A stretch of 22,284 bases of DNA, filler included, from Bradymonadales bacterium (lineage in GTDB: Bacteria; Bdellovibrionota; UBA2394): assembly GCA_007693605.1 (NCBI GenBank). It is 2 parts of 2 records of this genome, joined end to end, with 100 filler letters (N's around TTAATTAATTAA, not from the genome) between each part and the next. Parts side by side here need not be neighbours in the genome. Positions count along the whole stretch, not along the records: positions 1 to 11,735 come from REDG01000039.1; 1 more part is not named here. One strand, written 5' to 3'. Under the pieces are notes generated by a model. It worked only from the letters and a program-made list of their open reading frames with translations, made no database searches and had not been told where the DNA came from. A program made the position numbers and the translations under genes. This document shows, one piece after another, positions 1 to 12,513 of the stretch. Each line of letters opens with the position of its first letter. Position 1 is the stretch's first letter.

Positions 1-169
1 CTCCTCAAAAACCCAAATCTAACGCACTACATCCCAACTAATCCGGAAAAGATCCCATGCTTTCTGCCCGCTCCCTCTTTCCGTAAGGCTCTATGTGAGT
101 TCAGCGTTAAAAAGGTGAAAACTGTCATTCCTATGGTCAAACTGCACGAGAACTAAGACTGAGATTTTG

Positions 170-463
170 CTAGCGATCGGGCCGAAGGTTCCTAGGCTTT
201 CGCTTAATGTAAAGATCAATATTTTCAGCAATGATGAGCTTTGCCATCGTTTGATAGCCCAGATCTCTCTCCGCTGCCGCTTGGCGAAGCTTGGCAACGA
301 GATCCGGACTGATTCTCAGGCTTATTGGCTGAGTTCGAGATCGAATTCGAACTGCTGAGTCTGCATCGACAATTGCCTTGCCTGTGTCTTGAGTCTCAAA
401 AGCGTTCATAAGCTTTTGGTCGCTTAAGGATTTCTTCTTTTTGCCCGACTTTTTCTTTTTCAT
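170..463 (-). CDS. Type II antitoxin, CopG/BrnA-like ribbon-helix-helix protein
   Basis: 97 aa. The C-terminal TQPISLRISPDLVAKLRQAAAERDLGYQTM matches the ISLR...L...A...G.YQT pattern of CopG-type antitoxins. Its start overlaps the toxin stop (ATGA, 460-463). Confidence 0.8.
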   Translation of the reverse strand: MKKKKSGKKKKSLSDQKLMNAFETQDTGKAIVDADSAVRIRSRTQPISLRISPDLVAKLRQAAAERDLGYQTMAKLIIAENIDLYIKRKPRNLRPDR

Positions 464-798
464 AGGAACTTCACCTCACGATAGACAGTCTTTTCCATAG
501 TGTGAGCGGGTCTACACGAGATTGGCCTCAACCTGCCATTTCGTATGGTAAATGTCATCGCCAGACAGTCTCCATTTCGGTCAGTTCCGATCAACTCCCA
601 CCTGGACTCCTTTAAATCTGGACGAGCAATTCGCCCCGCGAAAACAAAATCCTCTGCGAGTTCCTCCACTTGGCTCCTTATCAACCCATGCTTCTTCAGC
701 TTTCGTAGGTTGCCTTTGTCCCAATCAAAGCTGGGCGCCTCGGACCACTTGTACAGCCAACCGGCCATGTCTGGGTCTGGCTCAAGAACCAGCTTCAT
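460..798 (-). CDS. BrnT-family (DUF497) ribonuclease toxin
   Basis: Contains FDWDKGN..K..KHG, ESRWELIG and FTIR.GRLRPISCR.A...E...Y, which are typical BrnT motifs. The start is moved from 819 to ATG 798 because 819 lies inside the promoter. Confidence 0.85.
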   Translation of the reverse strand: MKLVLEPDPDMAGWLYKWSEAPSFDWDKGNLRKLKKHGLIRSQVEELAEDFVFAGRIARPDLKESRWELIGTDRNGDCLAMTFTIRNGRLRPISCRPAHTMEKTVYREVKFL

Positions 799-806
799 AT
801 ATTCCA

Positions 807-834
807 ATTGTATATACATTCATGACAAAGTCAA
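807..834 (-). promoter_or_regulatory. Sigma-70 promoter of the TA operon with an overlapping palindromic operator
   Basis: The minus strand reads TTGACT (834-829), a 16-nt spacer, then TACAAT (812-807). The perfect palindrome TGTATATACA (809-818) overlaps the -10 element. Confidence 0.75.
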
Positions 835-1043
835 GTTCCACACTTCTAAGGGCCTCTCATTGCCCTCTATGGCAGTGCCGGCCCGTCCCCCTGGCGGCGT
901 TGTGATCCCCCGAGGCTATCGAGTCAGGACGGCCTCGCGCGAATGGCGGTCGAGAGGCCGCAGAGACCAAGCTGGAGGCCCTTCTGGACGGACTGTTCGA
1001 CTCAAAAGTTGTCAAAGTCGGTCTCCTGCTCTAAGCAGGGGGC

Positions 1044-1886
1044 ATGGAAGAAGAAGTTCTAACAGGGGTTAACCAGTTTATTGGGCAGTTTTTCGGTTTT
1101 GCTCCTCGGATCTTGATGGCGATTCTCGTTCTTTTTATTGGTTTGTGGATTATTCGCATTCTAGACCGATTTCTCTGTATGAGCCTTGAGCGACGAGGGA
1201 TCGACGACAATCTCCGCCCCTTTCTAAAGAGCCTTGTTGGGGTCGTTCTAAAGATTTCTCTCTTTGTTTCGGTGATTGGGATGTTGGGCGTACAGACCAC
1301 TTCGTTCGTTGCGCTGTTAGGGGCGGCGGGCTTGGCCGTCGGCCTGTCCCTTCAAGGCAGCCTGGCGAATTTTGCCGGAGGAGTTTTGATTCTTCTGTTT
1401 CGACCCTTTCGAGTGGGCGATTTTATTGAGACTCAAGGTTACTCAGGCAGTGTCAGAGAAATTCAAATCTTCAATACGGTGCTGAGCACTCCAGACAACC
1501 GGCGCGTGATTTTGCCGAACGGAGCGGTAGCGGGTAATAGCTTGGTGAACTTCTCTGCCGAGACCACTCGTCGTCTCGATTTGAATTTCGGTGTCAGCTA
1601 CTCTGACGATCTTTCGAAGGTGCGCCGAGTTATCCAAGAGGTTCTTGCAAAAGATGGGCGAGTTAAGTCAGAGCCAGAACCCCTGATTGTGGTATCGAGT
1701 CTTGGCGACAGCTCGGTTAATTTTCTGGTGCGAGTTTGGGTGAACTCCTCTGATTTTTGGGCGGTCAATTTCAGTGTCATTGAGAATATGAAGATTGCTT
1801 TCGACGAAGCCGGAATTTCCATTCCCTTTCCCCAAAGAGAGCTTCACCTTCGAGATCAAAAGCAGCTTCAGAAAGGGGCCGCCTAA
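1044..1886 (+). CDS. mscS: Small-conductance mechanosensitive channel
   Basis: 280 aa. Contains TTSFVALLGAAGLAVGLSLQGSLANFAGGVLILLFRPFRVGDFIE, TPDNRRVILPNG, LGDSSVNF and GISIPFPQRELH. Confidence 0.97.
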   Translation: MEEEVLTGVNQFIGQFFGFAPRILMAILVLFIGLWIIRILDRFLCMSLERRGIDDNLRPFLKSLVGVVLKISLFVSVIGMLGVQTTSFVALLGAAGLAVGLSLQGSLANFAGGVLILLFRPFRVGDFIETQGYSGSVREIQIFNTVLSTPDNRRVILPNGAVAGNSLVNFSAETTRRLDLNFGVSYSDDLSKVRRVIQEVLAKDGRVKSEPEPLIVVSSLGDSSVNFLVRVWVNSSDFWAVNFSVIENMKIAFDEAGISIPFPQRELHLRDQKQLQKGAA

Positions 1887-1916
1887 GCCTGTGAATGGAC
1901 CTCATAAAGGCTTAGG
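1882..1916 (+). other. Stem-loop at the mscS stop without a U-tract (mRNA stabiliser or pause site)
   Basis: CCTAAGCCT (1882-1890) and AGGCTTAGG (1908-1916) form a perfect inverted repeat. Confidence 0.4.
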
Positions 1917-1926
1917 GCGTACATAA

Positions 1927-2193
1927 ATGATTGTTTTTGGATCACACGGAAATCTTCAAAGGCTCCCCCTTTGGAAAAAAGCCCTCTTCGTCTTATTGGC
2001 CCTTCCGTTTTTCATCGCGCTTTTGCCGCTTGGGCTTTATATGATTTATCGCATTCGCAAACGAATGAAGAAGATTGAAAAGGAATGGGATGAACTCCAA
2101 AGAAGGCAAGCGCGACAGCGCATCGAAGTGGAAGTGATCGACATTGAGTCGAAGCCCCGAGAACTTGGTTCCAAACACAATCAAAGCCGTTGA
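1927..2193 (+). CDS. Small single-pass membrane protein of unknown function
   Basis: 88 aa. One long hydrophobic segment (ALFVLLALPFFIALLPLGLYMIY) is followed by a basic coiled segment and an EVIDIE tail. It fills the gap between two co-oriented genes. Confidence 0.7.
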   Translation: MIVFGSHGNLQRLPLWKKALFVLLALPFFIALLPLGLYMIYRIRKRMKKIEKEWDELQRRQARQRIEVEVIDIESKPRELGSKHNQSR

Positions 2194-2226
2194 CCTTCTC
2201 TGGTCTCGCAAGAATACTGTTTTTAA

Positions 2227-3480
2227 GTGGATCATGTTTCGATTTTTCTAATCAGTCTTTCCGGTCTGTTCCTTTCGGGCATTGCCGCTGAGATTCTTTT
2301 TAAGAGAACCCGTATTCCTGATGCGCTATGGCTTGTAGGGCTGGGGATTTTGATCGGACCCATCTTTAACTTGGTTTCTTCTGATTTTTTGGAGAAGCTT
2401 CTGCCCTTTTTTGCAGCCTTTGCATTGATTGTGATTTTATTTGAAGGGGGGCGACAGCTGAGTCTGAGAAGTCTGAAGTCAACCGTGGGGCGTGCGACCC
2501 TTCTGGGTGTTCTCAGCTTTGGGGTGTCTGGCTTTGCGGCCGCTTTGTTTTCTTGGCTCGGTGTGCTGATTGGGGTTTTACAGGATTGGACCTGGCTCAA
2601 AGCCGGAATGTTTGGAGCCATTGTCGGGGGCTCTAGTTCTATCATCATCATTCCCACCATGCAGATCGGGCAGGTCAAAGAAGATGTGGCGAATCTGGTC
2701 ACAGTAGAGTCCGCGGTGACGGACGCCTTTTGTGTGGTCTTGGCCTTTGTGTTCTTGCAGATGGTCTTATTCTCGGGGCAGGCGGATCTCAACTCTTCAT
2801 CGGATGGGGCCGTGCGGCTTTTAGAAAGTGTTGGCTTTGGTGTCGTGTTAGGCGGCTTGGCGGGTTTTTTCTGGGTTTTTATTTTGCCATGGATTCCTTC
2901 TTCTTACAGTTATTTGATTACACTTTCGGCTCTCTTTGGATTCTATGTTCTGGTGCAAGAACTTGGAGGCAGCGCGGCTTTGGCGATTCTGATTTTTGCC
3001 GTTATTGTTGGGAATGCCGGCATTATTGGTCGCTTGAGTAAGTTGCAGGGCAGACGACTGATTGGGGATGAGGTCGGAATCGTGCATTTGCAGTTGTCCT
3101 TTGTGGTGAAGGTTTTTTTCTTTGTGATCGTGGGGGCTTTGTTGAGGCCGCCCTTTCTGCCGATGCTTTTCGGAATCTTATTGGCGGGAGTTTTGGTGGG
3201 AGTTCGACCCTTGGCAGTTCGCTGGGGTTTGATGAAGTCAGACTTCAGCCAGGATGATCGAAAAATGATCAATATTTGCGCTCCCCGAGGCTTGGCTGCC
3301 GGGGTCTTGGCTACTCTTCCGCTGACGCAAGGCGTAAGCGGCGTGGACGATCTTTCCACCATCGTTTTTGCCGTCATCGTGACGACGATTGTGGTCTTTG
3401 CGGTGTTTTTTCGGAAGCTTCAGGTTTCCATACCACCCAGCCCAGAAACCTCAGTGGGGATCGAGAATAACGGCGCCTGA
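2227..3480 (+). CDS. Cation:proton antiporter, CPA1/NhaP type
   Basis: 417 aa with many TM segments. Contains RIPD..WL..LGILIGP, ILFEGG, ESAVTD and PRGLAAGVLA. GTG start. Confidence 0.9.
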   Translation: MDHVSIFLISLSGLFLSGIAAEILFKRTRIPDALWLVGLGILIGPIFNLVSSDFLEKLLPFFAAFALIVILFEGGRQLSLRSLKSTVGRATLLGVLSFGVSGFAAALFSWLGVLIGVLQDWTWLKAGMFGAIVGGSSSIIIIPTMQIGQVKEDVANLVTVESAVTDAFCVVLAFVFLQMVLFSGQADLNSSSDGAVRLLESVGFGVVLGGLAGFFWVFILPWIPSSYSYLITLSALFGFYVLVQELGGSAALAILIFAVIVGNAGIIGRLSKLQGRRLIGDEVGIVHLQLSFVVKVFFFVIVGALLRPPFLPMLFGILLAGVLVGVRPLAVRWGLMKSDFSQDDRKMINICAPRGLAAGVLATLPLTQGVSGVDDLSTIVFAVIVTTIVVFAVFFRKLQVSIPPSPETSVGIENNGA

Positions 3481-3846
3481 TTTATGGAGTCGCTTGACGA
3501 GATTGAGAAGGGCAAGAATCTGAGGGTCTGACTTATCCACGAATTCAACCCCGTAGTAGACTTTTTCGAGGCCTCCTTGAGATTGGCAAAGGCTGTAGAG
3601 AAGGTCGGCTTCAATGCTCAAGTAAGCCGGATCCATTTCGGGGGAGTAAAAGTGACAATGAATTCGAGCCGGTGGGCTGAGTTCTTTGGCTTCGACGCTA
3701 CTCCAAAAGCCCGCCCCGCCCCGACCAAAGGTGACGAGTTGAAAGCTCGGCCTCAGAGGCCCAATGCTTCCTTTAAAAAGCTCGGGATCTTGAATCCGAT
3801 ACCGAACGAACTTTCTCTTAAAGCGAAAAGCAAATGGATGCATCAC
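3451..3846 (-). CDS. Stand-alone PilZ-like domain protein
   Basis: Has RKFVR (RxxxR), then TFGRGGAGF at the position of [DN]xSxxG, and a C-terminal YYGVEF. An SD-like GGAG lies upstream. Its 3' end overlaps the antiporter by 30 nt. Confidence 0.65.
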   Translation of the reverse strand: MMHPFAFRFKRKFVRYRIQDPELFKGSIGPLRPSFQLVTFGRGGAGFWSSVEAKELSPPARIHCHFYSPEMDPAYLSIEADLLYSLCQSQGGLEKVYYGVEFVDKSDPQILALLNLVKRLHKSGAVILDPH

Positions 3847-3949
3847 TCCCCTACTCCAAATAGTCTAACAGAAATAGAAGAGAATCTTTTTAAATTATGA
3901 TGATATTCAATGGTTCTCTCGGAGCCTTCGGGGGTGGAGCTTCAGATTT

Positions 3950-4843
3950 CTATTTGCTTCCCTTGGAACAGGCCCTCAGGACTGCCCGAAGAGCAGCGTC
4001 CTGTTGAGCTTTACTTGTCGACGGCCTAAAAGCAATCCCAATGGGTTCCCTAATATCAGGAGGCAATGCACTGAGGATTGCTTCAGTCCCTCCAAGAAAG
4101 ACGGCCTCGAAAAGATTGTCGAAGGCTTCATCAAGTGCCATTAGCTGCGATTCTAGGTGCATAATGGCAAATCGAGCTTCGATGAATCGAGAAAGAGAAA
4201 TGGGTTTCCCTTTGATTTGAGCCATAAGAAGCTTGTGCTGTTCTAAAATCTTGTCACGAGCTTTCTTGTACTGATCGAGGCTCTCTCCTAAAGCCACGAG
4301 ATATGTTTCGTTGAAATCGTTCGTTGAGTTTTCTGAAGCGCTCACCTGAATTCTTGTGACGAGCCTATGCTGCTGGGTCTCGGCAAAGACCCAGCCGCCC
4401 GAGATTCTTCCATCCACAAATACGGTCTCTGAAACTGGGAGCTGATCTATGTATCTAGCGGCTGCCTTCTGAAAAAGCTTAATCGTCACGCCAGCCGTAG
4501 CAGCCGCAGTACCGACTCCAAGCATGAAGGCTAACTCGGGTAAAGCGCTTGCTGCTGATGCATTCGGCATCGTATTCACAACCGTATAGGCCCCCAAGGA
4601 TGGCAGCCCGATCAGCCAGCCCACCAGCACCGTGTTGAACAGCTCGTTTTGAGAGAGTGCATCCGTAATCCGGCCTTCGATCTCCGCGCGATCTGACACT
4701 GAGCTCTGACTAGGCATGGCTTCAGCATCCGAACTATGCGTCTCTGCAACAAGTTCTGAACTTAAGGGCTGGAGGATCAAACTCAGCAACAGGACAGGAG
4801 AACCGACTAGCGCTAAGCAATTTCGTTTAAAGAAACGATGCAT
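3950..4843 (-). CDS. Hypothetical exported protein with two internal hydrophobic segments and a C-terminal AVLRAC motif
   Basis: GGAGGA (4860-4855) precedes ATG 4843, giving 297 aa. The N-terminus is signal-peptide-like (MHRFFKRNCLALVGSPVLLLSLIL). No family recognised. Confidence 0.8.
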   Translation of the reverse strand: MHRFFKRNCLALVGSPVLLLSLILQPLSSELVAETHSSDAEAMPSQSSVSDRAEIEGRITDALSQNELFNTVLVGWLIGLPSLGAYTVVNTMPNASAASALPELAFMLGVGTAAATAGVTIKLFQKAAARYIDQLPVSETVFVDGRISGGWVFAETQQHRLVTRIQVSASENSTNDFNETYLVALGESLDQYKKARDKILEQHKLLMAQIKGKPISLSRFIEARFAIMHLESQLMALDEAFDNLFEAVFLGGTEAILSALPPDIREPIGIAFRPSTSKAQQDAALRAVLRACSKGSK

Positions 4844-4848
4844 TCTGT

Positions 4849-5541
4849 TTAACTTCCTCCAATACATGCATTAACCATAGCGGCGACGGCTGAGTTTTTC
4901 TTTTGAGTGGGTTGGGAAGCATGAACGGCCCCTTCGGCTTGAGTTCGCATACCAGACTGCATGAACTTAAACTCCAACAGTGCCCTGAACTCCATGTGTG
5001 CCTTAAACTCCATCAATGCCTTAAGCTCTGAGTTGAGCTGCTCATACTGTTTGGTGGCTTTGGGGGAGGTCGTCGAGCGTAAAGCGTGATGACCTTCAAT
5101 CTTGGCAAGATCCATTTCATAGGAGACTCGAATGCGCTTTTCAAGTTGCATTGCCCGCTCATCAAAGGTGGGTTTGTCCACTTCACCGGCACTAAACTCG
5201 TTGAATAAGTTTTTGATCTCAGATCTAAACTCTCTGCTTTTTCGCCAGGCCTTTGTCGGATTGTTTCTAACAAATATTCCCGGCGCCACGACTGGACCAT
5301 CTCGGAGCCTAAGGTAAAGATCTGGAGCTTCAAAGAATAACCAGTACGAAAGGTGTATTGACGCATAGCCTATAGCTAGGCCTGTTGTTAGGACAATGAT
5401 ATCCGCGACGAATGCTTCCGCTTCTCCGCCCTGTGCGAAGGCCTCTTCGCTTGTAAAGGCAAAGCTCAGCGCCAAACAAAACGATAAGGCCCATGGCATC
5501 CATTTTTTTCGATGAAACTTCGCGATAGACTGAAACAACAC
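4849..5541 (-). CDS. Hypothetical exported protein with one hydrophobic segment and a C-terminal AMVNAC motif
   Basis: GAGGAG (5554-5549) lies 7 nt before GTG 5541, giving 230 aa (the ORF track starts at 5556). The signal peptide ends in AFA|Q. Confidence 0.8.
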   Translation of the reverse strand: MLFQSIAKFHRKKWMPWALSFCLALSFAFTSEEAFAQGGEAEAFVADIIVLTTGLAIGYASIHLSYWLFFEAPDLYLRLRDGPVVAPGIFVRNNPTKAWRKSREFRSEIKNLFNEFSAGEVDKPTFDERAMQLEKRIRVSYEMDLAKIEGHHALRSTTSPKATKQYEQLNSELKALMEFKAHMEFRALLEFKFMQSGMRTQAEGAVHASQPTQKKNSAVAAMVNACIGGS

Positions 5542-5579
5542 AAGAGATCTCCTCAAACTTAAAGCTTCCTTTGAAGGCC

Positions 5580-5596
5580 TGCAAAGAATACGCCAA
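5580..5596 (-). promoter_or_regulatory. Sigma-54 -24/-12 promoter
   Basis: The minus strand reads TTGGCGTATTCTTTGCA, with exact GG-N10-GC spacing, about 40 nt upstream of the start codon. Confidence 0.75.
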
Positions 5597-5609
5597 GAAA
5601 GAGGATTCT

Positions 5610-5622
5610 TAAGTTATTGATT
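5610..5622 (-). promoter_or_regulatory. IHF binding site
   Basis: The minus strand reads AATCAATAACTTA, an exact match to WATCAANNNNTTR, just upstream of the sigma-54 site. Confidence 0.65.
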
Positions 5623-5848
5623 ATATTAGAAGTTCAGTCCCATGCCCCTCAGAAATGCGACATCCATTGCCTCAATTTAGGTTCATTGATGGGAGCCCCC
5701 CTCCCCTCCGACCGGCCCCGCTCTGATCGAGCAGATCTCAGTCTCGCAACGGCAGTAGACATCATATTTTGGGGTTAGGGTGTTATGCGGAAGGTCCTTC
5801 GCTCTGACTCAGGCGAGGTTCGGGGGTGTGTGCAGTCTGTCGAGAGTC

Positions 5849-8800
5849 TCAGTCCTGATTGTGATTGTAGGGGCTGGAGTCGCCTTGCTGCTCCTGAGTC
5901 CAATAGCCTCTCTGATCTACTTGACCCTCAATTGTGCGGTGTGAAGCCGAACTTGCATCTGGGGCTCGGACAGCGGTGGAAGCGCCCAAAATGACAGCGC
6001 CTAAAGTTAGCTTTGGTGCTGCCTTGGCGGCGTCAAAAGGATGAAATCGAGAGCGATAGGCACCAGCTTGGCCCTCGATGAAGCGAACATCTCCGACATC
6101 CATCAAGTACGAGAGCACCGTAAGGGCGGCCCCCATGAATTCTTGAAAGTTTGTCGTCGCCACGGCCATATCCATATATTCCGACAGACCAGAGGAGGCC
6201 TCGAAGATATTGATGGTTTGACTAAACATTTGGCCGCCATGATCAGCTCGCATTAAAGCGACTCTTTGATCTCTGGTTAAAAATCTTGCTTGTGATTCCG
6301 TTGGGTAGGCTCGACCCGTCGCCGAACGGTAGCTCGCTCTTGCAATCGCCTGCCCACTAAGACTCATTGCGGCGGTATAAAACATACTATTTCCAGCCCC
6401 AACCAAGGTGTCAAAGGCGACATTCAGCCAGCGAATGATTCGATTCTCCTTGCTGGCAGCGTAAAGCTCGTAGCCTAATGTGGCAGCTCCGCTCATCGCG
6501 AAATTGAAGACGATCATATTGGCGGCAGCGATTCCATAGCCCAGATTCAGCGCCGCCGTTTGCGATCCGGCAAATCTAACTCCTATGGGCCTAAAGAGGT
6601 TCCGTTCCAAAAGGGCGGTCCCTCTGGCCTGCGCTTGACTGGCAGAGCCCATTTTCAACATCGCTGCTGACATGATGGCGAGTTTTGAAACGGCAAAGAA
6701 GGTTGAACTCAAAACCGCGGTGACCTCATCGTCTGTGATCCCCCCGTTGGTTAATAGCCTCCAGTTTTCTTGAACGATTCGATCAAGACCCTGCATTTTC
6801 ATCTCATAGAGTTCGAATTCGTTCAGGACGCCGTAGTGGTGAAGCTGATAAGCGGTTTCGATATCAACTAAGAGCTCCAAGGGTACTTCCATCACTAAAC
6901 CAAAGCCCGGCAAGATAGAGCTCTTAATCATGAACGAGATAAAGGAAAGGGGTTCTGCGAAGCGACCCGGTGGGGTCCAACCAAAAACTGAGTTCTTCAC
7001 AAGGGGTTTAAGGTCGTCATGAAGCGAGCCCCCCCAATGCTCATTCGCCGTTGTCCTAATCCAGTTGTAGTAGTCGAGCCCCCAGTCTCTTCTTTGGCCG
7101 GTGATCATCTCGGCCCACTGCCCAGCGGCGAGCGGAAACAGTGCGGCCGTATGATGAAGGCCTTCGCCCATCTTGGCTAAGCCATAACCTACTTTAACGG
7201 CCTTCTCTCCCGCATAGGTCCACAAACCTTCATCGGTAACGATTCTAAAACTCTCGATCACTACTTCGTGAGGAAGCATCACATATCGCCTCCAACCTTG
7301 GCGATTGTTTCTGCGGGTGAGCGTCCTCTCCAAAAATTCTTGCAAGTAATTGGTCTCTGTCTTCGTTTCAGCCATCGCCCGCCTAATTTCGGCCTCTCGA
7401 GTCGAGAGAAAAGCTTCGGCCACCTCTTTCATTAGGCCTTGTCGGTATTCATAAAGTTCATTTCGTAGGCGTGCTTGAACTTCTTCGGGGTACTGACTCA
7501 AAATCCGATGCAGCTGGAGCTCAAGCGGCCTTCTTCTGAGATTCTCAAATTCATCTTGTTTTTGAAGTTGTTCGTAGGCGATTGTGAGATCTCGATTGGC
7601 TTCCTGCAATTCATTCATTTGAAGGCTCAGAACCCTTTGAGATTGTTCAGCCTGAAGCAACCCATTTAAAACTCCATGGGCGACTGATAGAAAGTGGTTA
7701 TCTATGAAGCCTTCAGATTGAATTTCAATCTCGAGCCCTTCTCTTTTGAGTAGCTCATGCCAGGCTTCAATCTCGTCGAGCACGGCCTGCCAAGTCATTT
7801 CACCTCCTTGAATTTTAGAAGTAATCGCTTGTTGGATTGCCAAGGTCATCAGTTGGACTTCCACTTCCTGATGGGCTTTCTCAGCTTCAGCTCTTTCATT
7901 TTCATTTCGAAAGAAGCTCCAGACCTCATTTCTAAGTTGAGATTTTAAGTCCTCTAATTCTTGGGTGATGTTTCGAAATAGATTTTGTCGATGTGCAGCA
8001 TCCTCTTCTTGAAAAATGTCCGATTGATCTTCGAAGATCGATCTGAAGTTTAAAGCGGAATTCTCCATGAATGGTCGAAGTCTTGCTACTTCCTGTGCTC
8101 TTTCTTGCTCAGCAGCAATAATGAAATCGTTAATCTGTATCAGACGGTTTTGAGAGAGCTGAGTTTGTCGTCTGATCGAGAAAAGCCATTCTGCTTCAGG
8201 GAGTGTCATGATGTCACTCAAGCTGAAGCCACCCAGCTCTTGAAACTCCTTTTGTGAGTAGGCCAATCGAAAGTCCTGCATTGAGCCCTCAAAGTCCGAC
8301 ATGAATTGCAACGCAAGCTCTCGACGGCTTTCTCGTCTTCTTGCCTCGTATCGAGCCTGCTCTCTTTCTTTCGTTGCTTTGTAGTAGAGTTCTAGTTCCT
8401 GAAGCTCGATTTGAAGCTTCTCCAGGATTCCAAGCCTTTCAACCTCTTCAAGATTCCAAGCTCCCGGCTCCCCTAGCCTACCGTTCGCCAAGAGATGCAT
8501 GACTCGTTGAATCGATAAATACTGCCGCAGATGTTGAATCACCTCTTCGCTCGCGCTAAAGCTCGAAGGCATCGTGGCTTCATTTTCTGTATCGGAATTC
8601 TGAGCGGTGAAGATGTCAAAATTCTCGATGCCAAAAGCCTCAAAGATTCTTCGAATTTCAACTTCTGCGCTTTCGAGTTGTTCATTAAGCTCATTCTGAG
8701 CACCTATTCGATCGTCCACAAAGTCTTGCCAGTCCTCAAAAAGACCTGGAAAAGAATCGAGATCTTCCGATTCTAAGGGCGTAGCGACAGCCAAAGCCTC

Positions 8801-9610
8801 AAGTTGTTGCATATAGGTGGCTGAAATAGTTTTGGCTAAGATTTCTTGAAGAATCAGCTTCAACTCAAACTCCTCAACGATGTCTCGAAGGGGGAACTCA
8901 TGAATGAGAGATGTATCCCCCGCGACTATTCTCTCCTCTTTACCGCTCATATATTGTAGGAATGCTTGTTCAAACAGACGAATTCTCTGTTGATGCCACA
9001 GATCTTTGAGAAACTCTGGGTCGATTGCTTGGTTGATTCGTTTTGATTCTACTGCCCTTTCGATGTCTTTGATCCACTCTTCCATTGTTAGGTCAAAGTC
9101 TGATTTTGTGAGCTGGCCGTCTTGGCCATCTATGAGTTGAGAAGCTCTCAGCCGTAATCGGTTGAACCTCATCGCCTGAAGAATTTGCAACTGTCGCCAA
9201 TCAGACAGATCGTTTAGAAAGGCCCACTCCAGTTCGTTACCCAGCCAAGCCCCTGTCTGAATTCGTTCTGTCAATCGCTCAAGAACAAGGCTTGGTAGGC
9301 GTCTTTCAAAGTCTTCGATTTGACGAACAAGCCTCTGTTGTTCAGTTTCACTGAGGTGCTCTGGTCGCTCGGATAAAATCTGGCGTAGGGCTTCAAGTTG
9401 AACCTGGAATCGTTCAAAATGAGGATGGTTTTCAATCGCAGGCAGCCTTGGCTCATGCTCACTCGGTAGAGAAGCCTGACTTGAGAAATTAAGTACAGAA
9501 TCTAAAGGAAAGTCTGGCTCGCAAACAGTCGCCTCTCCCCTAAAGGGGAGAACTAGGCTGATTCCAAAATAGAACAGCCATTGGCTCGTCATTTGCTTTC
9601 CACACCACAT
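5849..9610 (-). CDS. Large hypothetical exported protein (Glu/Gln-rich helical region plus Gly/Ala-rich hydrophobic C-terminal third)
   Basis: Uninterrupted 1253-aa ORF with a signal-like N-terminus (WLFYFGISLVLPFRGEA|TVC) and GAGGGA upstream. No catalytic motif recognised. Confidence 0.85.
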   Translation of the reverse strand: MWCGKQMTSQWLFYFGISLVLPFRGEATVCEPDFPLDSVLNFSSQASLPSEHEPRLPAIENHPHFERFQVQLEALRQILSERPEHLSETEQQRLVRQIEDFERRLPSLVLERLTERIQTGAWLGNELEWAFLNDLSDWRQLQILQAMRFNRLRLRASQLIDGQDGQLTKSDFDLTMEEWIKDIERAVESKRINQAIDPEFLKDLWHQQRIRLFEQAFLQYMSGKEERIVAGDTSLIHEFPLRDIVEEFELKLILQEILAKTISATYMQQLEALAVATPLESEDLDSFPGLFEDWQDFVDDRIGAQNELNEQLESAEVEIRRIFEAFGIENFDIFTAQNSDTENEATMPSSFSASEEVIQHLRQYLSIQRVMHLLANGRLGEPGAWNLEEVERLGILEKLQIELQELELYYKATKEREQARYEARRRESRRELALQFMSDFEGSMQDFRLAYSQKEFQELGGFSLSDIMTLPEAEWLFSIRRQTQLSQNRLIQINDFIIAAEQERAQEVARLRPFMENSALNFRSIFEDQSDIFQEEDAAHRQNLFRNITQELEDLKSQLRNEVWSFFRNENERAEAEKAHQEVEVQLMTLAIQQAITSKIQGGEMTWQAVLDEIEAWHELLKREGLEIEIQSEGFIDNHFLSVAHGVLNGLLQAEQSQRVLSLQMNELQEANRDLTIAYEQLQKQDEFENLRRRPLELQLHRILSQYPEEVQARLRNELYEYRQGLMKEVAEAFLSTREAEIRRAMAETKTETNYLQEFLERTLTRRNNRQGWRRYVMLPHEVVIESFRIVTDEGLWTYAGEKAVKVGYGLAKMGEGLHHTAALFPLAAGQWAEMITGQRRDWGLDYYNWIRTTANEHWGGSLHDDLKPLVKNSVFGWTPPGRFAEPLSFISFMIKSSILPGFGLVMEVPLELLVDIETAYQLHHYGVLNEFELYEMKMQGLDRIVQENWRLLTNGGITDDEVTAVLSSTFFAVSKLAIMSAAMLKMGSASQAQARGTALLERNLFRPIGVRFAGSQTAALNLGYGIAAANMIVFNFAMSGAATLGYELYAASKENRIIRWLNVAFDTLVGAGNSMFYTAAMSLSGQAIARASYRSATGRAYPTESQARFLTRDQRVALMRADHGGQMFSQTINIFEASSGLSEYMDMAVATTNFQEFMGAALTVLSYLMDVGDVRFIEGQAGAYRSRFHPFDAAKAAPKLTLGAVILGASTAVRAPDASSASHRTIEGQVDQRGYWTQEQQGDSSPYNHNQD

Positions 9611-9640
9611 TTTTTATCCCTCTGCCCGAGGGCAAAGCCT

Positions 9641-10387
9641 CTAGCCGGTTATACTTCGGTGACAATTCCTTTCAAAAAAGTCATCAATCTGGGCATCAGT
9701 GAATCCCGCTTGCTCCAAAAGGCCTGTCAGATAGATTCTCGCGATCATTGTTGATACAGCTTCAATCAAGGCCGACTGTCCTCCAGTCACCTCTACCTCG
9801 GCGTTGGCTGATACCTTGGGGTTGTCTGAATCTATAGCCACCGTGTCCACTAGCTTCAAAACGCCCGTACCCTCAACTTGAACTACAACAAGTCGCTCCG
9901 CGAGTGGAGTGCTATTCGCCCAAGCCAAAAAGGCTTCTTTTAATGAGTCCATATTGATGCCTTCAGCTTCCAGCTGAGACCTTAGGGCATCGCCAGCCTC
10001 CATAAAGTCATGGTCGTGTGCAGGGTGACCGATTGAAGCCATCAGACCAGAGAGGAATATATTGGTATCGATTTGTGCTTTGCTACGACTGGCCCTCTGG
10101 CGTTGAGTACATTGCTCCTCCTGTCTATCTGCAAGGATTTCAAGGAGAGCGTTATTCATCACCTCAACGGAAACAGCTGAGCCTGAGAAGCCCGCAGCCG
10201 GATTGTTTTCTATCACGGCCTCCCGGGCAGCATCATCTCGTTCTTTCCTCACTTCGTTATTTTTCCTCGATCCTTTAGCCTCTTGGTGCTGAGTCATACC
10301 AGCGCTAGAGCCACCCCCTCGCTGAGCCTCCAGACTCTCAAGAGCGCCGAAGCTAAAAACGATCAATCCTAAAATTAAATAACGCAT
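9641..10387 (-). CDS. Hypothetical exported acidic protein
   Basis: GAGGAGGA (10402-10395) precedes ATG 10387, giving 248 aa. The signal peptide reads MRYLILGLIVFSFGALESLEA|Q. Two Cys are present, one of them 7 residues from the C-terminus. Confidence 0.85.
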   Translation of the reverse strand: MRYLILGLIVFSFGALESLEAQRGGGSSAGMTQHQEAKGSRKNNEVRKERDDAAREAVIENNPAAGFSGSAVSVEVMNNALLEILADRQEEQCTQRQRASRSKAQIDTNIFLSGLMASIGHPAHDHDFMEAGDALRSQLEAEGINMDSLKEAFLAWANSTPLAERLVVVQVEGTGVLKLVDTVAIDSDNPKVSANAEVEVTGGQSALIEAVSTMIARIYLTGLLEQAGFTDAQIDDFFERNCHRSITG

Positions 10388-10426
10388 TCTTTGTTCCTCC
10401 TCAAAACTTGTCCGCTTCAACAAAAC

Positions 10427-10443
10427 TGCAAGTCCTGTTCCAA
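10427..10443 (-). promoter_or_regulatory. Sigma-54 -24/-12 promoter
   Basis: The minus strand reads TTGGAACAGGACTTGCA (GG-N10-GC), about 40 nt upstream of ATG 10387. Confidence 0.75.
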
Positions 10444-10908
10444 GCTTAAGGACTGGCTAGGGCTTGAAATCATTGAAGTTTTTACTGCACACGAAGGCCC
10501 CGGCTGGGACATTCGCAAAGCCTGCGCGGAATCTTTGTCGCGCTTCTGCGTAGCGAGGGCTCTGCCTGATGTCTGAATTCTTATCTCTTCAGAGGGAGGA
10601 CAGGCTAACGGTGCATCGGGCTTAAGTCGTCAGGGAGAAAGTCATCAAAGGGAAGATGGAGCTCGGCAAAATCGCTGCCTGGCTCGAGAAGCGGTGTAAG
10701 CCGATTTAGACATAAAGAAAAGCCAAAATCTTTGACGGTGTCGAAGCGACTCAGCTTCTACGCTTTGCTTTCAATTTCGTCGCCGAGAACAGGCCGGAGA
10801 GAAGGGGAAGGTCTTGGTGTGAAGATGGAAGTGGCTCGATGGGGCTGAGCAGATCGATGTTGTAGGTGATTGGCGTGCCGAGCTTCGGTACACACGGGTT
10901 GTGCCCAG

Positions 10909-11553
10909 CTAACTCTTTGATCTACAGGCCTTCATCAGAGCCTTTGTACTTCGGATTTTCTCGGCGCTTTTGATTGCCTTGAGTATCGGCTTTGCGGCAC
11001 GCATTTGCCTTTCACTGGATTCTCTCCACTTGTAATGTACGCCCAAGCCCGCAATTGGCTGATACTCCCTCACCGCGCCTAAGTGGGTCATTTCAATGCT
11101 ATTACCTTCAAGCACCTTGTTTAGCTCCCTTTTCGCCTTCTTCGTGTCAGCACCCATCTCGACCAGAAGCTGTGCAACTTCAGCCGTCCCTGAATAGAAC
11201 AGAGCCGAATGCCCGGTGAAGGGGTTTTCCTTATTGATCTTTGCCCCATGCTTTACGAGGAGCTTCACGATTTTGGCATGGCCGTTCATGGCTGCTAGAG
11301 TTAGCATGGTATGGCCCGATTTGGGATCGACGAACTTGACATTAACGCGCCCGTCTTTCAGGAGGTCTTTCACTTTCTCGACATCATTATTCCAAATGGC
11401 GTTTTGCAGTTTTCGTTCCTGCGAATTCATCAGCCAGTCACCAAATGCTTGGGATATCTCATCAACAGTTCGCAGGCCGCCACCGGCAGCGAGCTGAGCC
11501 GGAAGACTTAAAACTGAAAAGAGAATGAATGTAGATATCATTAGAATTCGCAT
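10909..11553 (-). CDS. Exported ankyrin-repeat protein with a C-terminal ALMKAC motif
   Basis: Ankyrin repeats GHTMLTLAAMNGHAKIVKLLVKHGAKIN and GHSALFYS..AEVAQLLVEMGAD follow a signal peptide. GGAGG lies 5 nt before ATG 11553, giving 214 aa. Confidence 0.9.
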   Translation of the reverse strand: MRILMISTFILFSVLSLPAQLAAGGGLRTVDEISQAFGDWLMNSQERKLQNAIWNNDVEKVKDLLKDGRVNVKFVDPKSGHTMLTLAAMNGHAKIVKLLVKHGAKINKENPFTGHSALFYSGTAEVAQLLVEMGADTKKAKRELNKVLEGNSIEMTHLGAVREYQPIAGLGVHYKWRESSERQMRAAKPILKAIKSAEKIRSTKALMKACRSKS

Positions 11554-11594
11554 AGGAGCCTCCATTTTGATCGAGATTGCATGAATGCAATTTT

Positions 11595-11611
11595 AGCAAG
11601 AAACATGCCAG
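11595..11611 (-). promoter_or_regulatory. Sigma-54 -24/-12 promoter
   Basis: The minus strand reads CTGGCATGTTTCTTGCT, close to the consensus YTGGCACGNNNNTTGCW, about 42 nt upstream of ATG 11553. Confidence 0.85.
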
Positions 11612-11735
11612 GCCTCTGTCATTGGAGGCTAGTTCAAGCGGGGGAGGTCCCAGAGTCTGTTGAAATGTGGGTCATCTATGGCCTATTTCCCGATTCTGTT
11701 GGTCACTTAAATAAGTGTGAGCAATATCGGGAGTT

Positions 11736-11835
11736 NNNNNNNNNNNNNNNNNNNNNNNNNNNNNNNNNNNNNNNNNNNNTTAATTAATTAANNNNNNNNN
11801 NNNNNNNNNNNNNNNNNNNNNNNNNNNNNNNNNNN
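11736..11835. other. Artificial contig-joining spacer
   Basis: 44 N, then TTAATTAATTAA (stop codons in all six frames), then 44 N, totalling exactly 100 nt. Confidence 0.95.
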
Positions 11836-12056
11836 CGCCTTGATTCGAAGCAAAAGCTTGATTCACAACATGAAAAAATTTACCGGTTGGACCACCAGGA
11901 GCGAGCATCGCAGTGTGGTTATGATGCCACTCGAGAAGCGCAGCGACGCAGCCGCCACTGCAACGCGGGCAAGGAGCGTTGCAGCTATCCGCAAAAATCG
12001 TCGACCGGAGGTCGACCTGAAATTGGGGGCAGATGGGCCCTTAGCGCCACTCCCCC

Positions 12057-12098
12057 AAAATAAAAAAGGGCGGCTCCTACAGAGAAAACCGCCCTTTT
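12057..12098 (-). terminator. Rho-independent terminator of the RRM gene (possibly bidirectional)
   Basis: AAAAGGGCGG (12064-12073) pairs with CCGCCCTTTT (12089-12098). On the minus strand the stem is followed by TTTTTTATTTT. It lies 25 nt after the stop codon. Confidence 0.85.
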
Positions 12099-12123
12099 GA
12101 AATTTTTTAAGAATTTCGTCGGT

Positions 12124-12513
12124 CTAGTATCGTCCGCCTCGGTCGCGTCCACCGCCACCAAAACCACGATCGCGTCCGCCGCCGCCACCGCCACCGAAGC
12201 CGCCTCGGTCGCGTCCACCGCCACCTCCGCCGCCGCCAAAGCCGCCGCCGCCTCGACGAGGTGTTTCAGCTCTTGCTTCTGACACTCGTAAAGCTCGACC
12301 ATCAAGATCTTTTCCATTCAAATTGGAAATAGCCTCAGCCGCTTCTTCTGCCGTTGACATCACAACAAAGCCAAAGCCTCGGCTTCTGCCTGTCATTCGG
12401 TCCATTTTTACTTCTGCCGACTCAACGGTTCCGAACTCAGAGAAAGCTTGGTTAAGCATATCGTCTGTAACTCCGTACGCAATATTGCCGACATAGATTT
12501 TATTTGCACTCAT
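12124..12513 (-). CDS. RRM-domain RNA-binding protein with Gly/Arg-rich tail
   Basis: Contains RNP2 KIYVGNI and RNP1 RGFGFV, plus LNGKDLDGRALRVSEA and a GGRDRGGFGGG tail. AGGAGGA precedes ATG 12513, giving 129 aa (the ORF-track start at 12618 is too early). Confidence 0.95.
   Translation of the reverse strand: MSANKIYVGNIAYGVTDDMLNQAFSEFGTVESAEVKMDRMTGRSRGFGFVVMSTAEEAAEAISNLNGKDLDGRALRVSEARAETPRRGGGGFGGGGGGGGRDRGGFGGGGGGGRDRGFGGGGRDRGGRY
12134..12225. repeat. Exact 26-bp direct repeat within the Gly-rich tail
   Basis: CCGCCTCGGTCGCGTCCACCGCCACC occurs at 12134-12159 and 12200-12225 and encodes GGGRDRGG. Confidence 0.9.

Follow-up and report, generated by a model that had tools for sequence, protein, structure and literature searches.

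A block of five predicted secreted proteins with sigma-54 sites

The window, by which we mean the whole stretch of 22,284 nucleotides analyzed from a Bradymonadales bacterium (assembly GCA_007693605.1), carries on its contig C73 (positions 1-11735) a block of five consecutive minus-strand genes, each predicted to encode a protein with a signal peptide and a cysteine near an end. The genome (G000) measures 2.19 Mb, is 90% complete, and belongs to a family of 14 genomes of 2.1-3.0 Mb each. Throughout, genes, signal peptides and promoters were called and scored with our own scripts, the signal peptides by our own hydrophobicity rule and not by SignalP.

All features of the block lie on the minus strand and are described here in the direction of transcription. 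The first gene (10909-11553) encodes an ankyrin-repeat protein of 214 residues (Pfam Ank_2, E 5.7e-14), and is preceded at 42 nt by a sigma-54 (-24/-12) promoter-type site (11595-11610; score 9.6). Its single cysteine, Cys210, belongs to a C-terminal tag of a type that we call mirror (10912-10950; see below), in which the helix ends A-L-M-K-A-C and is followed by 4 residues. A second sigma-54 promoter-type site (10427-10442), 40 nt before the next gene, heads a unit composed of the genes for an acidic protein of 248 residues (9641-10387), which has two mature cysteines (93 and 242), and for a giant helical protein of 1253 residues (5849-9610), whose sole mature cysteine, Cys30, stands in a C-x-P context. 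The third site (5580-5595) is found 39 nt before the gene for a 230-residue orphan (4849-5541) and heads the last two genes of the block, the final one encoding a 297-residue orphan (3950-4843); the last codons of the former gene serve also as the ribosome-binding site of the latter. The 230-residue protein bears a further hydrophobic helix (residues 39-57) and a single mature cysteine, Cys226, within its own mirror-type tag (4852-4890). The 297-residue protein has hydrophobic helices at residues 68-86 and 97-115, a long helical hairpin and, in a tag of the same type (3953-3994), the single mature cysteine Cys292. All three promoter-type sites fit TGG-N10-GC[AT].

Much of what a sequence-only reading of this DNA had described was borne out. 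The hydrophobicity rule called signal peptides in 5 of the 5 consecutive minus-strand open reading frames, the GG-N10-GC promoters that it had placed about 40 nt upstream of three units lie at 42, 40 and 39 nt, and the cysteines stand where it had put them, four within the last 7 residues (292/297, 226/230, 242/248, the last together with Cys93, and 210/214) and one, Cys30 of 1253, close behind the giant's predicted cleavage site. That reading had also called the proteins orphans, which holds for four of them (no Pfam or NCBIfam match near cut-off); the fifth is the ankyrin protein, which it had recognized. Its proposal of a shared terminal tag stands insofar as all five proteins have a terminal cysteine, and falls insofar as the cysteines occur in three contexts, none of which is the strict tag common to the family. 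Four cysteines within the last 7 residues were found in 1 of 1536 five-gene windows genome-wide, that one being this block, which was chosen post hoc. A cysteine in the last 7 positions was not enriched over all proteins of the genome. Moreover, the association that had been proposed between sigma-54 operons and such cysteines vanished once C73 was set aside (10/124 compared to 103/1687, p=0.34), and that between predicted secretion and such cysteines persisted only as a weak enrichment (38/399 compared to 75/1412, p=0.003).

The strong sigma-54 sites of this genome are genuine. Of 1887 genes, 35 have a site scoring at least 8 in the upstream region; none of 1748 gene interiors contains one, nor did any turn up in five shuffles. 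The genome has rpoN. Genes with a sigma-54 site were predominantly predicted to encode secreted proteins (42 of 62; odds ratio 8.1).

Neither of the last two proteins of the block has evident relatives. For the 297-residue protein no homologue better than E 0.02 was found in 150 other genomes of the phylum, and its matches in the Atlas stayed under 0.8; its model, of poor quality (predicted local distance difference test [pLDDT] 48, low confidence), has a helical tail and no PDB match. A search with the 230-residue protein returned only the protein itself. That the two might be paralogues was considered and rejected (E 20).

A terminal cysteine tag across the family

A lone cysteine near either end, mostly in the context C-x3-L-x2-L, occurs in 76 of 590 predicted secreted proteins from five genomes of the family. 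We defined a strict forward tag, C-x3-[LVIF]-x2-[LIV] at either end of predicted secreted, non-lipoprotein sequences, on G000, and used four relatives (G004, G008, G007 and G003) as an out-of-sample test. Strict terminal tags were present in 27 of 343 secreted proteins of G000 compared to a shuffle mean of 7.1, in 9 of 89 in 480 kb of G004 and 19 of 83 in 380 kb of G008 (1.9 in shuffles in each case), and in 15 of 43 and 6 of 32 in G007 and G003, respectively. Samples from other families were at or near chance (2/100, 1/45, 1/35, 0/17, 1/23, and 2/28 in G015).

Further observations concern the cysteine itself. Among secreted proteins with a single mature cysteine, that cysteine lies at an end in 60 of 104, compared to 18.4 expected. 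With C73 left out, a single terminal cysteine was associated with a sigma-54 site (21/58 compared to 27/451; odds ratio 8.9, p=1e-9). Tagged proteins had an odd number of cysteines in 59 cases and an even number in 16, compared to 147 and 173 for untagged proteins (p=2e-7), as would be expected if the tag cysteine had no partner inside its own chain. Finally, only 4 of 28 tagged proteins from two relatives had a match in G000, compared to 350 of 541 non-secreted proteins; as judged by sequence comparison, most tagged proteins are orphans.

The mirror form of the tag

The ankyrin, 230-residue and 297-residue proteins of the window end in a helix of the form A-phi-phi-[KRN]-A-C. Four or five residues come after its cysteine, the sole mature one of each protein. 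Hydrophobic residues stand at -4 and often at -7 from the cysteine, where the forward tag has them at +4 and +7, from which we infer that the two forms display the same helical face. A search of the 14 family genomes with a degenerate DNA pattern for the mirror form yielded 30 rows, 7 of which end a long open reading frame; the remaining rows, made up of short frames, Trp codons and duplicate rows for one site, were discarded. Three of the seven are the window genes. The others are a 569-residue protein of G004, encoded by a gene with a sigma-54 site, two orthologues, one in G009 and the other in G013, and a signal-less protein that presumably resembles a glutamine amidotransferase, so that 6 of the 7 bear a predicted signal. 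The mirror-tag proteins of G004 and G013 had no relatives among the 4040 proteins compared.

The giant family and its small neighbours

Alignment and modelling delimit within the giant a conserved module (5981-7309, minus strand) that is Gly/Ala-rich, partly hydrophobic and all-helical, with a model pLDDT of 59.7; the module is a candidate membrane-inserting part. It is present in 10 of 401 genomes, including 7 of 13 family relatives, with a paralogue on contig C61 of G000, and has 66 representatives in a wider library, where many module-bearing proteins are without a signal call. No match was found in Pfam or among PDB sequences, a word-index search returned only the module itself, and a metagenome scan returned nothing. 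In all seven full-length giants read from genomes a cysteine stands close behind the signal, with C-x-P in five. The C-terminal extensions vary (DnaJ, HExxH as recognized by eye, PLD, aminotransferase, or none); the giants of G010 and of C61 end in HExxH motifs, and that of the window has no extension. At one further locus, in G006, a stand-alone signal-bearing HExxH protein with a V-C-P-P start (L243, 11496-12368) is encoded divergently from the giant gene. Polymorphic toxin systems offer a parallel, since at the level of the family the giants keep one hydrophobic module and exchange their C-terminal parts; they differ in that the giant module is unmatched in Pfam and among PDB sequences, and in that the small neighbour also has a predicted export signal.

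In G006, G007, G008 and G012 the giant is followed by a signal-bearing protein of 202-228 residues with two mature cysteines, the last of them 3 residues from the end. A polymorphic toxin is expected to have a cognate immunity gene beside it. Two-cysteine neighbours of 202-248 residues stand at 5 of the 6 giant loci that can be judged; the giant of G010 has no such neighbour, and the other loci are broken by contig ends. By hidden Markov model comparison, these small neighbours showed no detectable homology to one another or to the 248-residue protein of the window, and we therefore call them look-alikes. The 248-residue protein likewise found nothing significant in the 13 family genomes. Because it has two mature cysteines, it does not carry a single-cysteine tag; its cysteine pair likely forms an internal disulfide, and the protein is likely a partner or escort of the giant and not tagged cargo.

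Domains carried by tagged proteins

The tagged or terminal-cysteine proteins of G000 (47 proteins) carry AAA, PrkA, SpoVR/DUF444, ATP-grasp, NUDIX and DnaJ domains together with weak sigma-70 matches, and those of G008 (42 proteins) include two kinases, AAA, CP-ATP-grasp and DnaJ domains and an EEP enzyme; both sets were chosen in part by eye, and loose tags are among them. Tagged proteins with a Pfam match often depend on ATP, chaperones or DNA. Untagged secreted proteins of G008, 39 of 61 of which were retained as a control, belong mostly to BamB, outer-membrane, peptidase, Ig-like and binding-protein families, and these 39 gave zero kinase, AAA, DnaJ or sigma matches. Kept out of this control were sequences that by eye looked like false signal calls, pilins, lipoproteins or variants of the tag. 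Neither ATP nor DNA is present in the periplasm, which leaves kinase, AAA, ATP-grasp, DnaJ and sigma-like domains without a substrate there; proteins with such domains would therefore act in the cytoplasm of another cell, and the sigma-like ones point to a bacterial target.

Two sets of loci in G000 bear on this cargo. An operon on C42 (121534-132503; L120) encodes a PrkA-type AAA protein, a second AAA protein and a SpoVR-DUF444 protein, all three with predicted signal peptides and terminal cysteine tags; this would apparently be a normally cytoplasmic system exported whole. Genes on C59 (2834-3895; L123) and C71 (11999-14347; L131) encode signal-bearing, cysteine-tagged proteins with weak sigma-70 region matches, which makes them candidate exported sigma-like effectors. 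The block of the window fits within a large set of predicted Sec-exported orphans that is enriched for sigma-54 sites, carries terminal cysteines and includes many members with domains that require a cytoplasm, which partly supports the substrate repertoire proposed from the sequence alone.

Type II secretion, VKOR-DsbA and GspK

No export machinery had been seen in the window, and none is there; a candidate lies elsewhere in the genome, on C61, where a type II secretion system (T2SS) is faced by a VKOR-DsbA gene and includes a GspK with a single cysteine. The T2SS is recognized by a gspD over cut-off and a T2SS ATPase on C61, the full operon being read from gene order. The genome also encodes a type IVa pilus, two Tad loci and a contractile-tail cluster. 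No DsbB was found in the genome, and the only disulfide catalyst found is one VKOR fused to a DsbA-like domain, whose gene is arranged head to head with gspC, 80 nt apart. In 12 of 14 family genomes VKOR-DsbA and gspC-gspD face each other in this way, as coordinates show for 11 and tblastn for G013; the exceptions are G006, where the two are split, and G001, which has no VKOR match. Of 19 VKOR-bearing genomes from other families, none had the link.

GspK (C61, 39379-40461; L352) has a single mature cysteine, Cys123, situated in a helix of the tag type. This residue is invariant in 17 of 17 sequences, our own included and the other 16 at 33-63% identity, and is among 22 invariant columns of the alignment; 11 of the 17 fit the strict tag. 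We consider that GspK is a stronger clue than the VKOR gene order. GspI (C61, 38190-38696) also has a single cysteine. The cysteine segment of GspK aligns to a gap in the GspK of G015, a member of another family. On contig C1 of G015 (L256-L257 region), GspC has four cysteines, including a CxxC, and GspK is without the cysteine helix; this GspC is possibly another T2SS thiol site. A literature search, which excluded subscription journals and supplements, found no description of the tag, of a VKOR-T2SS link in Bdellovibrionota, or of a single-cysteine GspK.

The contractile-tail cluster of G000 (C16, 54279-70310) contains two sheath genes. Scattered genes at C18 19559, C45 8924 and C72 36217, which we take to be tail-tube-like, each have a sigma-54 site and are followed by a variable gene.

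Setting of the window

Contig C73 is followed in the window by a 100-nt N linker (11736-11835) with a TTAATTAATTAA core, and then by contig C79. The linker is an assembly join and not genomic sequence, and so there is no genomic context past 11735. The start of C79 (11836-12055) belongs to a repeat family with about 70 BLAST matches genome-wide, many of them at contig ends, and a 110-residue open reading frame at 11985-12317 that overlaps it may be spurious. C79 also encodes a protein that we take to be MetF-like, and its best named matches, at 64-66% identity, come from Bdellovibrio, Bdellovibrionales and Bacteriovoracaceae. From these matches and from the membership of the family, the bacterium is probably of the Bdellovibrionota type and predatory. 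On C73, a BrnT/BrnA-type toxin-antitoxin pair occupies the contig start (170-819), and a weak PilZ-domain gene (3451-3843) lies directly downstream of the five-gene block on the same strand.

Discussion

The reading that we favour, albeit tentatively and at somewhat less than an even chance, is that the tagged proteins are cargo of a lineage-specific T2SS, docked by a disulfide through a terminal cysteine on an amphipathic helix and directed at prey. Sigma-54 would drive the block along with some 60 other genes that have the site, and Sec would carry the predicted products to the periplasm. There, VKOR-DsbA would join the lone cysteine to a partner, most simply the lone cysteine of the tip pseudopilin GspK, and the mirror-type helix would present the surface of the forward tag read in reverse. 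The T2SS would then push the cargo outward at contact with prey, where the hydrophobic module of the giant and the hydrophobic helices of the 230- and 297-residue proteins may embed themselves in the membrane of the prey, and enzymatic cargo would be released in the prey cytoplasm on reduction. The window would thus supply membrane-inserting parts, an escort (the 248-residue protein) and an ankyrin effector. In a bolder form, which we consider rather unlikely, the T2SS would possess a true linear signal, a one-cysteine helix at either end and in either orientation that VKOR-DsbA docks on GspK, and kinases, ATPases, J-domain proteins and sigma-like factors would enter the prey cytoplasm via a pore made of proteins like those of the window.

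Several observations weigh against this interpretation. None of the five window proteins fits the strict forward tag, and a sigma-54 site precedes only 13 of 56 strict forward-tagged genes. The mirror form was defined from the window itself and has just four independent kinds of carrier beyond chance matches, and a script found the N-terminal cysteine in 7 of 21 signal-bearing giant-module proteins of the wider library. The family genomes are kin and not independent samples; 26 of 36 divergent gene pairs are kept within the family, and with order so widely conserved the VKOR-gspC link, weak when taken alone, may simply have been inherited. The GspI cysteine may be the partner of that of GspK. 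GspD was present in 41 of 41 sampled genomes, yet several other families carry tags no more often than chance predicts, and about four tags were recognized by eye in 100 kb of G015 (strict 2/28 compared to 0.7), which has neither the GspK segment nor the VKOR link. Beside the T2SS stand the pilus, the two Tad loci and the contractile-tail cluster of the same genome. What the sequences show is the motifs and their enrichment, the cysteine parity, the cargo domains, the gene order and the conservation of GspK; export, the disulfide, its receptor, delivery and what the window proteins do are inferred from these.

These points leave room for other explanations, one being that the tag is a real effector address read by a different machine (Tad/Kil-type or the type IVa pilus) or by a periplasmic carrier, with the T2SS clues incidental. 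It would draw on the sigma-54 sites ahead of pilin or secretin genes at the two Tad loci and on the presence of the pilus, on the tags of a genome without the GspK segment, and on a gspC for which our scan found no sigma-54 site. PMC12428579 describes contact killing by Tad in Myxococcus and an essential Tad in Bdellovibrio, and calls it unclear what pili do in the predation of the latter; according to PMC13200544, Tad/Kil systems occur in up to 81% of the Bdellovibrionota genomes used. Set against this, the oxidase gene faces the T2SS and not Tad in the 12 family genomes noted above, and GspK itself has a tag-like single cysteine, and we regard a different machine as rather improbable.

A second family of explanations keeps the proteins at home. 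Cysteine-based terminal anchors are known, as in lipoproteins and MYXO-CTERM proteins, and the lone cysteine could be such an anchor, acylated after cleavage, or a homodimer residue, leaving the proteins in the envelope or on the surface of the predator. An odd cysteine count suits lipidation or homodimers equally well, and some of the listed proteins are of envelope type (Wzi, DUF5715); however, the motif occurs at either end, with no lipobox and no membrane helix, and the kinase, AAA, ATP-grasp, DnaJ and sigma-like domains would find no substrate in the periplasm. Anchoring thus strikes us as unlikely. More doubtful still is the notion that the block is an island of unrelated sigma-54-driven secreted proteins outside any family-wide tag system, with cysteines of separate causes: an internal disulfide in the 248-residue protein, a family feature in the giant, and a small local motif in the other three. 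The three cysteine contexts, the failure without C73 of the test proposed by the sequence-only reading, the lack of homology among the giants' neighbours, and the restriction of the mirror form within G000 to just these three secreted proteins all suit such an island. Against it, the mirror motif ends unrelated signal-bearing proteins in three relatives, all but one of its carriers have a signal, and its cysteine is the only mature one in each window carrier.

Like T2SS substrates, the tagged proteins would use a Sec signal and then, as unrelated cargo, fold in the periplasm with disulfides, and a complete gsp operon is present; the differences are the short linear cysteine helix at either end, the lineage-specific helix of GspK, and cargo domains that require a cytoplasm. 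In disulfide-linked AB toxins, a disulfide joins A and B in the diphtheria type and CdtB and PltA in typhoid toxin. A single terminal cysteine would similarly hold an enzyme on its carrier until reduction, and a hydrophobic helical module could insert; the present proteins differ in having no sequence match to such toxins, in that dozens of cargoes share the motif, and in that the target is most likely bacterial. Short terminal cysteine motifs on unrelated exported proteins are also a feature of MYXO-CTERM/myxosortase, Synergist-CTERM and lipoprotein signals. In the MYXO-CTERM type, the cysteine motif is followed by a transmembrane helix and a basic tail. We rejected a signal of this type for the window proteins, in which 2-6 residues follow the cysteine, there is no C-terminal hydrophobic segment or basic tail, and NCBIfam gave no match. 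A lipobox, whose cysteine comes straight after an uncharged hydrophobic stretch, was rejected because four of the cysteines are C-terminal and Cys30 of the giant is preceded by charged residues. Type IX secretion cargo, which has a beta-rich C-terminal domain of 70-100 residues, was rejected on the absence of a Pfam match and a tail predicted to be helical, no search for type IX machinery having been made, and type III translocators (SctB/SctE), which have no Sec signal and go with an injectisome export gate, on the predicted signal peptides and on the finding of one FHIPEP gene only, on a contig whose genes we presume to be flagellar. The Kil (Tad) systems of Myxococcus and Bdellovibrionota share with our case a predatory context and Tad loci, and effector delivery by them is hypothesized and unresolved in the available parts of PMC12428579 and PMC13200544. 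Those same parts describe no cargo signal, and the genomic clues here favour the T2SS.

How the T2SS chooses its cargo is a long-open question, PMC7949064 stating that its substrates have no linear sequence in common, and how effectors are delivered at prey contact in Bdellovibrionota is described as unresolved in PMC12428579. An eight-residue tag with one changeable cysteine, a candidate receptor in GspK, and a named oxidase would make both questions directly testable. In addition, the tag would offer a simple rule for listing the effector sets, mostly orphans, of uncultured predators.

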